Shown here one piece after another: positions 31,315 to 34,054 of a stretch of 64,000 nt of DNA. This DNA is from Ectothiorhodospiraceae bacterium (GTDB lineage Bacteria; Pseudomonadota; Gammaproteobacteria; Nitrococcales; Aquisalimonadaceae), in contig SKGQ01000037.1 of assembly GCA_007117515.1 (NCBI GenBank), forward strand, positions 23,286-87,285, read 5' to 3'. Within the stretch, counting starts at the first letter, position 1. Every line of letters starts with the position of its first letter. A program made the position numbers and the translations under genes. Under the pieces are notes generated by a model. It did not search any database, had not been told where the DNA came from, and saw only the letters and a list, made by a program, of their open reading frames with translations.

Positions 31315-32208
31315 ATGAAACGCATCACGCTGCTGCGCATCCTGCTGCGCGCCCTGAGCGTCCTGCCCTTGCCGGTTGCCCATGCCATGGGCGCAGCCAG
31401 CGGTCAGTTGGTCTACCTGATGGCCCCCCGGTTGCGACATGTCGTGATGACCAATCTTGCCCTGTGTTTTCCGGAAATGCCGGAGCCGGAGCGGCGGCGC
31501 CTGGCGCGGGCCAGCTTCCGCGAGCTGGGCAAGCAGCTGCTGGAAACCGGAATCATCTGGTTCGGCCGTGCCGAGCGCGTGCGACAACTGGTGGTCAATC
31601 CGGAATCACTGGATGAACTGGCCAGCTACTGGCCGCAGGATCGGGGCCTGCTGCTGGCCGGACCGCACCTGGGTAACTGGGATTTGACCGGCCTGCACGT
31701 CAACAGCCGCTTCACGCTGCATCACCTGTATCGGCCACCGCGGCAGGCGGAGCTGGAACCGCTGCTGACCGAAGTGCGGGAACGCGGCGGCGGGCGCTCG
31801 CTCCCGGCCACGCCCAATGGCATTCGGACCCTCTACAAGGCCCTGCGCGGCGGTGCCCTGGTGGGGATCCTGCCGGATCAGGAAGCCCGGGGCAGCGGCG
31901 TGTTCGCGCCGTTATTCGGGGTGCCGGCACGGACCATGACGCTGCTCAACCAGATGGCCACGAAAACCGGCGCGCCGGTGCTGTTCTGCTTCATGCAACG
32001 GCTGCCCTGGGGCCGGGGTTTCCGGATGCATGTCATCCCCGCACCGCGGGGAATTGACGATCCGGACCCGGAAGTCGCCGCCGGGGCACTGAACAGGGGC
32101 GTCGAGGAGTGCGTGCGCCTGGCGCCGGAACAATACCAATGGACCTACAAGCGTTTCCGCCAGCATCCGGACGGCAATCCGTACAAGAATTCGCAGGGAA
32201 ATCGGTGA
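31315..32208 (+). CDS. lpxL: Lipid A late acyltransferase (LpxL/HtrB family)
   Basis: HxxxxD motif PHLGNWD, ILPDQ, PEQYQWTYKRFR. Confidence 0.9.
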   Translation: MKRITLLRILLRALSVLPLPVAHAMGAASGQLVYLMAPRLRHVVMTNLALCFPEMPEPERRRLARASFRELGKQLLETGIIWFGRAERVRQLVVNPESLDELASYWPQDRGLLLAGPHLGNWDLTGLHVNSRFTLHHLYRPPRQAELEPLLTEVRERGGGRSLPATPNGIRTLYKALRGGALVGILPDQEARGSGVFAPLFGVPARTMTLLNQMATKTGAPVLFCFMQRLPWGRGFRMHVIPAPRGIDDPDPEVAAGALNRGVEECVRLAPEQYQWTYKRFRQHPDGNPYKNSQGNR

Positions 32209-32269
32209 TTTGATGCACGGATGCGGTGGGCGTTTTCTCCGTATGTGGTAGGCCGCAGCGATCGAGTCT

Positions 32270-32575
32270 TTATCCGTAAACGTCCAGGCCAGTGCAAGCT
32301 TTCGCCGGGACTGCCGCCGGCTGGATGGACAACATTGCAGTAAGCACGGGGGCAGGTGGTCTTCCGATAGCGGATGGGCCAGTGCAAGCTTTCGTCTGGC
32401 CTGACGAACCTTCGGTCCAACAGGGCCAGCCGAAAACTTCCACTGCCCCTACCAGACTGAGAATGGTGTTGCTTCGTCCGGACGAAGCCCCCGACTTTCG
32501 ACGCGATCCGGACACGCGCCGCTATACCGGTTGGCACGGGGCATGATGTGGAACGGAATCCCGGCGGACCCTGAT
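32270..32575. ncRNA. Candidate structured non-coding RNA or repeat element, family unknown
   Basis: 394-nt gap between convergent genes with nested helices, an 18-nt direct repeat at 90-nt spacing and a perfect 18-nt palindrome; strand and boundaries uncertain. Confidence 0.4.
32287..32394. repeat. Direct repeat GGCCAGTGCAAGCTTTCG, two copies (32287-32304 and 32377-32394)
   Basis: Read directly from the sequence; 18/18 identical. Confidence 0.9.
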
Positions 32576-32602
32576 TTTCGAGCGTCAGCAGCCTGGGCGT
32601 CG

Positions 32603-34054
32603 CTACCGGCGCCAGAACGCCGGGGTGAACAGGACGAGGAGGGTAAAGATCTCGAGGCGGCCGAGCAGCATCGCGAACATCAGGATCCACTTGGCCACGC
32701 CGCCAATCTCACCGTAGTTGGCCGCCACGTCACCCAGACCCGGCCCCAGATTGGTGATGTTAGCCGCTACCGCCGAGAACGCCGTCACCTGGTCCAGCCC
32801 GGTGGCCATCATCGCCAGCATCATGATCGCGAACAGTGCGATGTAGGCGGCGAAAAAGCCCCAGACGGCGTCGGTGATGCGTTCATTCACCGCCCTGTTA
32901 CCCACTTTCACCAGCACCTGGGCCTGGGGATGAACCAGCCGGATCAGCTCTCGATACCCCTGCTTGATCAGCAGTGCAAAACGGATCACCTTGATGCCCC
33001 CGCCGGTGGACATGGCACAGCCGCCGATGAACGCGGTACTGACCAGCAATACCGGCAGAAACACCGGCCACTGGTCGAAATCGGCGGTGGCGAACCCGGC
33101 AGTGGTGCCAATCGACACTGCCTGGAAGATCGCCTTGGTGAAGTTCTCATTGACCGAGTCAAAGGTGCCGAACAGGATCAGCGTTGCGAAAGTGACCACT
33201 GTTACCGTTGTCAGGATCCCGAAATACCAGCGCGCCTCGGTATCGCGAAAATAATGGCGAATGCTCCGGCGACGCCAGGCCACGAAGTGCAGGGCGAAAT
33301 TGATGCCGGCAATCAGCATGAAAAACACACAGATCATCTCGATCAGGGGACTGTCAAAGTGGCCGATGCTGGCGTCATAGGTGGAGTAGCCACCAATCGC
33401 TACCGTCGAAAAGCTGTGACCAATGGCATCGAACACGCTCATGCCCGCCAACCAGTAGGCGGCGGCGCAGGCGATGGTCAGCGTCAGATAGATATACCAG
33501 AGCGCCTTGGCGGTTTCGGCGATGCGCGGGGTGAGCTTGCTGTCCTTGACCGGACCTGGCGTCTCGGCGCGGTAGAGCTGCATGCCGCCGACACCGAGCA
33601 TCGGCAGGATCGCCACCGCCAGCACGATGATGCCCATGCCCCCCATCCATTGCAGCTGCTGGCGATAGAAGCGAATTGAATGCGGCAGATCGTCGATGCC
33701 GGTGAGGATCGTGGCACCGGTGGTGGTCAGACCGGACAGGCTCTCGAAGGCGGCATCGGTCAGCGAGATCGACGGGGCCGTGGACAGGAACAGCGGCACG
33801 GCGCCGGCCATGCCGAGCACCGTCCAGAACAGGACCACGATCAGAAAACCGTCCCGGATCCGCAGCTCGTGCCGCACCCGGTGGACCGGCAACCAGAGAA
33901 TGGCGCCGAAGAGGACGATCAGCACGAAAGAGGCCAGGAACGGGACCACGCCGGCGTCCTGATACATCAGCGCAACCAGGAACGGCGGCAGCATGCTGAT
34001 GCTGAACACCATCAGCAGCAGCCCCAGAACGCGTTGCACCGCCGTCCAGTGCAT
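32603..34054 (-). CDS. trkH: Trk potassium uptake membrane protein
   Basis: ESLSGLTTTGAT, WMGGMGII, STGGGIK, GRLEI. Confidence 0.96.
   Translation of the reverse strand: MHWTAVQRVLGLLLMVFSISMLPPFLVALMYQDAGVVPFLASFVLIVLFGAILWLPVHRVRHELRIRDGFLIVVLFWTVLGMAGAVPLFLSTAPSISLTDAAFESLSGLTTTGATILTGIDDLPHSIRFYRQQLQWMGGMGIIVLAVAILPMLGVGGMQLYRAETPGPVKDSKLTPRIAETAKALWYIYLTLTIACAAAYWLAGMSVFDAIGHSFSTVAIGGYSTYDASIGHFDSPLIEMICVFFMLIAGINFALHFVAWRRRSIRHYFRDTEARWYFGILTTVTVVTFATLILFGTFDSVNENFTKAIFQAVSIGTTAGFATADFDQWPVFLPVLLVSTAFIGGCAMSTGGGIKVIRFALLIKQGYRELIRLVHPQAQVLVKVGNRAVNERITDAVWGFFAAYIALFAIMMLAMMATGLDQVTAFSAVAANITNLGPGLGDVAANYGEIGGVAKWILMFAMLLGRLEIFTLLVLFTPAFWRR

Follow-up and report, generated by a model that had tools for sequence, protein, structure and literature searches.

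The window, a 64,000-nt stretch of DNA from an Ectothiorhodospiraceae bacterium whose genome assembly (here G000) comprises 2.40 Mb in 210 contigs, contains a 394-nt spacer between two convergent genes, lpxL, encoding a lipid A biosynthesis acyltransferase, and trkH, encoding a potassium transporter. An earlier note on this DNA had proposed that the spacer holds a novel structured RNA consisting of two modules at an exact 90-nt period, either an ncRNA transcribed on its own, with binding or guide modules in tandem, or the RNA part of a non-autonomous mobile element. Its description of the locus was partly confirmed. Both flanking genes were assigned by Pfam matches, and no confident gene lies in the spacer, the open reading frames of which match no Pfam family and are not recognised as genes by a codon-usage model trained on the genome. 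The repeated motif GGCCAGTGCAAGCTTTCG is indeed present as exact copies at 32287 and 32377, with 0 chance matches expected (100 shuffles), and the similarity around the two copies reaches 30 nt at 87%.

Positions 32267-32542 are a short tandem array of units of a dispersed repeat family, in which we distinguish two related hairpin unit types, A (the type present in the window) and B. The features of the locus, in window coordinates, are as follows:

31315..32208, plus strand: lipid A biosynthesis acyltransferase gene (LpxL/LpxM family; PF03279, E = 9e-53)
32267-32347, plus strand: array unit 1 as a whole, type A minus most of its hairpin
32267..32304, plus strand: type-A 5′ lead of unit 1 (..TTTATCCGTAAACGTCCAG) with the left arm's first 18 nt (GGCCAGTGCAAGCTTTCG), the remainder of the hairpin being absent
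32305..32347, plus strand: "short-tail" linker variant of unit 1 (CCGGGAC...GACAACATTGCAG-TAAGCAC), which follows complete A hairpins elsewhere
32344..32353, plus strand: B-less junction, GCAC joined to GGGGGC (from comparison with the flanks of all A copies)
32354-32530, plus strand: array unit 2 as a whole, a complete A with long tail
32354..32375, plus strand: type-A 5′ lead of unit 2 (AGGTGGTCTTCCGATAGCGGAT; family alignment, consensus GGTGCnnTTCCGAnAGCGTCn)
32376..32449, plus strand: complete type-A hairpin of unit 2 (inverted repeat and consensus structure)
32450..32530, plus strand: "long tail" of unit 2 (TACCAGACTGAGAATGGTGTTGCTTCGTCCGGAC...CCGCTATACCGG; nhmmer profile positions up to 177)
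32531..32542, plus strand: second B-less junction, TTGGCAC joined to GGGGC (flank comparison)
32543..32602, plus strand: possible degenerate third unit (lead-like ATGATGTGGAACGGAATCCCGG, tail-like CCCTGATTTTCGA; direct repeat 32489/32569, lead likeness by eye)
32603..34054, minus strand: trkH potassium transporter gene, convergent (PF02386, E = 8e-93)

In unit 1, positions 4-53 of the family profile align to window positions 32267-32316 (nhmmer), and the half arm meets the short tail at a common GCTT(T)CG. Homologues of this short tail are found 3′ of complete A hairpins at three other sites in G000 (C161:2862, C178:7195 and C136:9966). We infer that unit 1 arose by internal deletion of a type-A unit, an event compatible with microhomology; since unit 1 would then be a truncated A, the 90-nt period is the length of a truncated unit and not a structural period. 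The hairpin of unit 2 has arms of 26 nt each (32376-32401 and 32424-32449) that are 85% complementary, and its 22-nt apical region (32402-32423) includes a cUUCGg/GAA mini-hairpin; the long tail that follows has conserved ends and a variable middle. In most arrays a type-B hairpin occupies the place of the first junction (GCAC-TGAGTGCCGGGGGAGG...CCTCACGCGGCAC-GGGGC), and 13 of the 17 copies with a long tail have a B hairpin next to the tail, inverted and starting with TGAGTGCCGGGGGAGG; B is absent from both expected places in the window array. The last 60 nt of the spacer may, with low confidence, represent a decayed third unit.

A dispersed family of two hairpin unit types

The spacer gave 77 matches when compared by BLAST with its own genome, and iterated nhmmer searches yielded 149 strand-hits, corresponding to 83 non-overlapping copies in 46 intergenic clusters. 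Together these amount to 8.9 kb (0.37% of the genome). For 9 of the 46 clusters, a contig end is less than 200 nt away. The hairpins of both types measure ~75-85 nt. Type A is composed of a 5′ lead (TGGTGC..TTCCGAnAGCGTCn), a 74-nt imperfect hairpin (GGGCCAGTGCAAGCTTTCGTCTGGCC - apical region - GGCCAGCCGAAAACTTCCACTGTCCC) and a 3′ tail, which has either a long form ending in CCGCCATACCGG or a short form with GACAACATTGCAG. The TCCG-N4-CG that had been seen upstream of both motif copies is part of the family's 5′ lead (consensus TTCCGAnAGCGTCnGGGCCAG) and is conserved as claimed. Type B reads GTGCCG-YGTG-AGGACAAGCTTTTTTCCGTCC - apical region - GGCCGGAGAAAAACCTTCTCCT-CCCC-CGGCAC, and common to both types is the core C-AAG-C-TTT.../...AAA-M-CTT-C, with mismatches at identical fixed positions.

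B is usually found 3′ of an A tail, inverted and joined by fixed linkers, and the two types build mosaic A-B-A-B arrays of up to 5 units and 649 nt (at C136, C129, C4, C7, C22, C153 and C161), in which the linkers CCGG-TTGGCAC-TGA.. and ..GCGGCAC-GGGGC-TGGTGC are conserved. A 5-nt direct repeat, GGCAC, brackets B, and the B-less junctions read GGCAC directly followed by GGGGC; this repeat could be a target duplication or just microhomology. The flanks of the A copies show no visible target duplication, and no clean new insertion of A or B with a target-site duplication was caught.

The family is intergenic. None of the clusters lies under a confident gene call, and in 4 clusters a long ORF call overlaps the repeats, which we read as over-extension by the gene caller. 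Spacers between convergent genes make up 15 of the 32 occupied spacers compared with 17% of all spacers (p = 9e-5), and copies occur in both orientations relative to their neighbouring genes. The family has spread to about 46 such intergenic sites with a preference for convergent spacers, and its arrays grow and shrink, with exchange of sequence among copies.

The conserved hairpin

An alignment of 37 A copies, 29 from the window's genome and 8 from a congener, gave as consensus structure a single long hairpin of 27 pairs, 10 of which show double compensatory changes, with one-sided changes and G-U intermediates almost absent. Pairing is kept in 98.3% of the cells of this hairpin, and sliding the 3′ partner lowers the figure to 35-53%. 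Double changes were counted in 59 cells versus 14.3 in shuffles and the observed covariation was reached by 0 of 500 shuffles, counts that overstate the number of independent events because the copies are related by descent. At least four distinct A stem variants exist. The consensus for B comprises 22 pairs, and 4 of these show double changes.

Set against this family structure, the pairings proposed in the earlier note fared unequally. CTGGCC/GGCCAG lies within the conserved hairpin with 26-nt arms and shares in its covariation. The GCCGG/CCGGC hairpin of module 1 and its GTCCA/TGGAC closure fall into the short-tail segment, and their pairings are lost in the homologues at C161, C178 and C136. 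The GGGGCAG-g-TGG/CCA-CTGCCCC helix said to close module 2 competes for the 3′ arm of the true hairpin and lies outside the family consensus structure, and the pairing register of the TCCG-ATAG-CGGA lead hairpin varies by copy, giving by eye no consistent covarying helix. The two modules had been taken to carry different hairpins with retained pairing; their stems are non-homologous, because the module-1 pairings are not conserved; module 1 is probably an internally deleted copy. The multi-way junction is likewise not supported, because the family does not preserve its closing helices.

For the 3′ tail no common fold emerged (RNAalifold on 19 tails: 3 pairs, 0 covariation), and single-sequence folding was modestly better than for shuffled sequences (z = -1.8 on the plus and -2.3 on the minus strand). 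On the A strand we counted 6 G-U and 9 A-C pairs; with G-U not favoured over A-C, nothing here points to selection acting on one RNA strand. For an RNA element, too, one would expect a hairpin to evolve by compensatory changes. No promoter-like site was found in the spacer, and no terminator-like site in 32100-32700 on either strand, the U-tract of an intrinsic terminator being absent. Rfam gave 0 matches for the whole window at gathering thresholds; in E-value mode the sole match was a spurious one to SCARNA11 (E = 3.3).

Distribution, turnover and search for a mobiliser

Among 30 genomes of relatives, at least 28 matches were found in one congener (G003) and a single fragment in a second; the family was not found in the other 28, which comprise 2 congeners and 26 genomes of other genera or families. 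A 16-mer scan of a 596-Gb collection of genome contigs returned a single true match, in Methylonatrum kenyense AMT 1, and otherwise almost exclusively chance matches, because a 16-mer is too short for 596 Gb. G003 is probably M. kenyense AMT 1. A gapped-pattern scan of metagenomes yielded 33 contigs, 30 from the same population as the window's genome and 3 chance matches. These contigs did not broaden the phylogenetic range; they showed polymorphism within the population and bridged gaps in the assembly. The window's genome matches contigs from soda-lake brine metagenomes at 99% or more, and the sequence of the window locus is identical in 6 other public assemblies.

An empty lpxL-trkH site, which the earlier note had suggested looking for in relatives, is present in the congener G001 (L036:1230-1760), where the two genes are arranged as lpxL-TAG-AAT-TTA-trkH with a spacer of 3 nt from stop to stop. 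The corresponding spacer in G003 is ~290 nt long and contains one copy of A together with the remnant of a B, in the same orientation. In G004 (L035:2440-2760) the spacer is unrelated, ~615 nt long and repeat-free; it contains an uncharacterised minus-strand ORF of ~105 codons. The G002 contig stops just past lpxL.

The hairpin in the window is 97% identical to a paralogue at C178:16366 versus 75% to its positional orthologue in G003. Orthologous arrays of G000 and G003 differ in the number or orientation of their units (C82 versus L026, C7 versus L025), and the same-population haplotypes L149 and C94 differ in array content. These differences between species and haplotypes, together with the identity between paralogues, point to turnover or gene conversion among the copies. 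Two public contigs (L181:3394-4400 and L186) match the window up to a point inside the A hairpin, beyond which they follow a different A locus (C179); these uninformative switches are probably assembly chimeras through the repeat, with real recombinants as the alternative. Several other public contigs of the locus terminate within the repeat. An apparent rearrangement of G000 contigs C94 and C204 relative to G003 was rejected as an assembly break, as the metagenome contig L153 joins both.

A profile search with PF01797 (Y1 transposase) found 0 genes in G000 and 1 in G003. This RAYT gene (L031:1246-1980) is flanked by classical GTAG-tagged REPs (GTAGGGTGCATTAAGCGMAGCGAATGCAC, GTAGGGCGGATCAAGCGCAGCGGATCCGC, GTAGGGTGCATTAAGCGAAGCGAATGCAC) of the type GTAGGGTGCATTAAGCG.., and no A/B match was found within 1.2 kb on either side of it, even at E <= 10. 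A and B are therefore not the RAYT-flanking repeats, and for G003 the RAYT was rejected as the enzyme spreading A/B, as judged from the flanks of that gene. In G000 the two GTAG REP motifs gave 35 and 41 matches (the lists overlap), and a 38-aa RAYT fragment that the Pfam genome search had missed is located at a contig end (C9:7-120). Because the G000 assembly is fragmented, the non-association with RAYT is firmest for G003.

The genome and the 30 same-population metagenome contigs yielded no longer element with A/B ends and no transposase adjacent to a copy. Tight bracketing by A copies was seen only for the genes of a MazE-like antitoxin (PF11455) and a PemK/MazF toxin (PF02452); the other intervals bracketed by A/B contain ordinary genes and no candidate mobiliser. 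The toxin-antitoxin pair (G000 C204:8788-9335, matching L153 8462-9105) resembles a small repeat-bracketed cassette.

A third, unrelated family of repeats in the same genome is a ~275-nt MITE, whose terminal inverted repeats read GGAAACACTGAT.../...ATCAGTGTTTCC and which is usually flanked by TAA/TTA or TAG/CTA (IS5-like TNA target). It gave 139 BLAST matches in G000, including 20 full-length copies, and its copies are 93-95% identical to the M. kenyense copy, while genes are only ~82% identical. Its presence or absence between contigs of the same population, with an empty site at L152:4133-4237 versus a filled one at G000 C49:2735-3009 and further cases at L157:2473-2876 and L044:6797-7079, suggests that it is probably active. 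One subfamily of this MITE occupies the apical loops of A/B hairpins. We saw it directly inside the loop of at least 4 A/B copies (C49, C22, C7 and C204), a pattern with which three truncated copies (C78, C143 and C129) agree. REPs are known to serve as IS insertion targets (PMC1525189). Pairs of MITE-type terminal repeats also flank segments of 0.9-1.6 kb in G000 (C209:3440-4489, C177:8596-10187, C141:4045-4944 and C100:173-1029) and segments of up to 2.4 kb at C36 and C76. These hold ordinary single genes, judged by eye to resemble those of a ParA-like ATPase, an amidase and an FKBP-type isomerase, and none contains a transposase; they may be cargo-carrying derivatives or two solo ends.

Relation to known repeat systems and competing explanations

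Several known families of bacterial intergenic repeats bear comparison with A/B. Correia elements of Neisseria and ERIC/IRU elements of enterobacteria are imperfect palindromes located between genes, ~100-150 bp long and with ~26-bp arms, and they are often co-transcribed and folded in the RNA; Correia elements have in addition a TA target duplication, a functional promoter and IHF sites. In A/B, by contrast, no TA duplication, promoter or IHF sites were found, and there is neither sequence similarity nor an Rfam match. Correia and ERIC/IRU elements have been reviewed (Delihas 2011, PMC3184786).

With classical REPs, A/B share the character of high-copy, extragenic, imperfect palindromes (83 copies), but a REP unit measures 20-40 nt and carries a terminal GTAG or CGTC tag, whereas A/B are hairpins of 74-85 nt without GTAG. 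The likeness to the BIMEs of E. coli (PMC3333891, PMC2817692) extends to the architecture, as these also combine two types of palindromic unit in opposite orientations through a few conserved linkers, are intergenic and often located at 3′ ends, and vary in the number of copies per array; their palindromic units are ~35 nt long compared with the 74-85 nt of the A/B hairpins. BIME classes have partly been defined by the binding of IHF, gyrase or Pol I (PMC3333891, PMC2817692). The CGTC-tagged REP superfamily (PMC3733652) is, like A/B, without a dedicated transposase, and the consensus of the A lead has a CGTC one base 5′ of the stem (AGCGTCnGGGCC). By eye, CGTC is present in ~10 of 29 A leads and absent from the complete copy in the window, and CGTC REPs have stems of 8-9 bp and loops of 4-5 nt (PMC3733652) in contrast to the long A/B hairpins.

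REPINs resemble A in having two conserved inverted arms around a variable spacer that form one hairpin with common compensatory changes. Like A/B they are extragenic, their ordered clusters are tandem repeats that include flanking sequences, and they are inherited within a lineage but differ between close relatives. Their arms are GTAG-tagged REPs and the family flanks its own RAYT, whereas A/B have no GTAG and the congener's RAYT is flanked by other REPs; the single-copy cognate RAYT flanked by the same repeats that defines a REPIN system was not found for A/B. A and B also differ from REPINs in the asymmetric 5′ lead and 3′ tail and in the alternation of two hairpin types.

A/B is an undescribed repeat family of the known REP/BIME/REPIN kind in Methylonatrum-like soda-lake bacteria, and the lpxL-trkH spacer is quite probably a partly decayed tandem array of this lineage-specific palindrome family and not an independent ncRNA gene. 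Insertions would persist between convergent genes because they do the least harm there. The hairpin may be maintained because folded single-stranded or cruciform DNA is recognised by the spreading or recombination machinery or by a host DNA-binding protein, and any effect at the RNA level, such as stabilising 3′ ends or keeping convergent transcripts apart, would be incidental to co-transcription. The earlier note had named a known Rfam family or an IS end as an outcome speaking against its proposal, and a repeat family is what emerged in spirit, although it corresponds to no Rfam entry and no named IS. Its alternative of a non-autonomous mobile element comes close, given the multi-copy and lineage-restricted occurrence, the empty site, and the mosaic arrays with a composition that varies between species and within the population.

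A/B might also work in the manner of REPINs but with a partner that is not RAYT, or with the resident RAYT acting in trans on hairpins without GTAG. We regard this as doubtful; a non-RAYT partner could be an unrecognised nuclease or recombinase that is encoded once and bracketed by A/B arms.

It is rather unlikely that A/B are cis-acting RNA elements at gene 3′ ends, protecting mRNAs or separating convergent transcripts, that spread through a benefit to the host. Such a role would agree with the strong enrichment at convergent spacers and gene 3′ ends, with the long stable hairpin and its compensatory changes, with the plus-strand apical loop, often an extra-stable cUUCGg tetraloop, and with the two U-G pairs that B keeps on one strand, and REPs of other bacteria reportedly stabilise mRNA and terminate transcription (PMC3733652, PMC2817692). 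However, the copies stand in either orientation relative to the upstream gene, have neither a U-tract nor a terminator-like site and, on the A strand, have G-U pairs (6) in no excess over A-C pairs (9); the same bias towards 3′ ends would result if purifying selection removed insertions that disrupt promoters, and the sister species G001 manages without a spacer at this locus.

A third explanation, that A/B are classical MITEs derived by deletion from an IS with a DDE transposase, their hairpin arms being terminal inverted repeats moved by cut-and-paste with target-site duplication, appears very unlikely. Inverted-repeat arms of 26 nt are of a size typical for MITEs (e.g., Correia elements), the GGCAC repeat brackets B, the B-less junctions read GGCAC directly followed by GGGGC, and another MITE family, probably active, resides in the same genome. 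Yet neither a parent element nor a transposase was found in the genome or the 30 same-population contigs, no duplication is visible around A, and the asymmetric lead, tail and linkers together with the strict alternation of A and B fit BIME-like arrays and not independent insertions of terminal-inverted-repeat elements. The original proposal of a novel structured ncRNA, transcribed on its own and built from two guide or binding modules in tandem, which drew on a conserved motif beside variable stems in an ORF-free gap, is largely refuted and exceedingly improbable. Its modules belong to a DNA repeat with 83 members, module 1 being probably a deletion derivative; only one hairpin is conserved, copies lie in both orientations relative to neighbouring genes, no Rfam match, promoter-like or terminator-like site was found, and the congener G001 lacks the spacer.

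The reading as a decayed array of a REP/BIME/REPIN-kind family thus removes a false lead, because the spacer does not represent a new class of structured RNA. The family breaks assemblies, as seen from the 9 clusters at contig ends and the chimeric joins in public contigs, and it marks hot spots of local rearrangement; families of this sort are useful as strain markers. A/B coexist with a classical RAYT/GTAG-REP system and with an IS5-like, probably active MITE that inserts into their hairpin loops. The mechanistic interest is moderate and depends on finding a partner enzyme. If the partner reading were true, the C-AAG-C-TTT core with its fixed mismatches would be the recognition site, and the soda-lake methylotroph, being in culture, would make a tractable second case of long palindromic repeats that propagate without a cognate Y1 transposase. 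A/B are a test case for the persistence of repeats without a recognisable transposase, a question that is also open for the CGTC-type REPs (PMC3733652).
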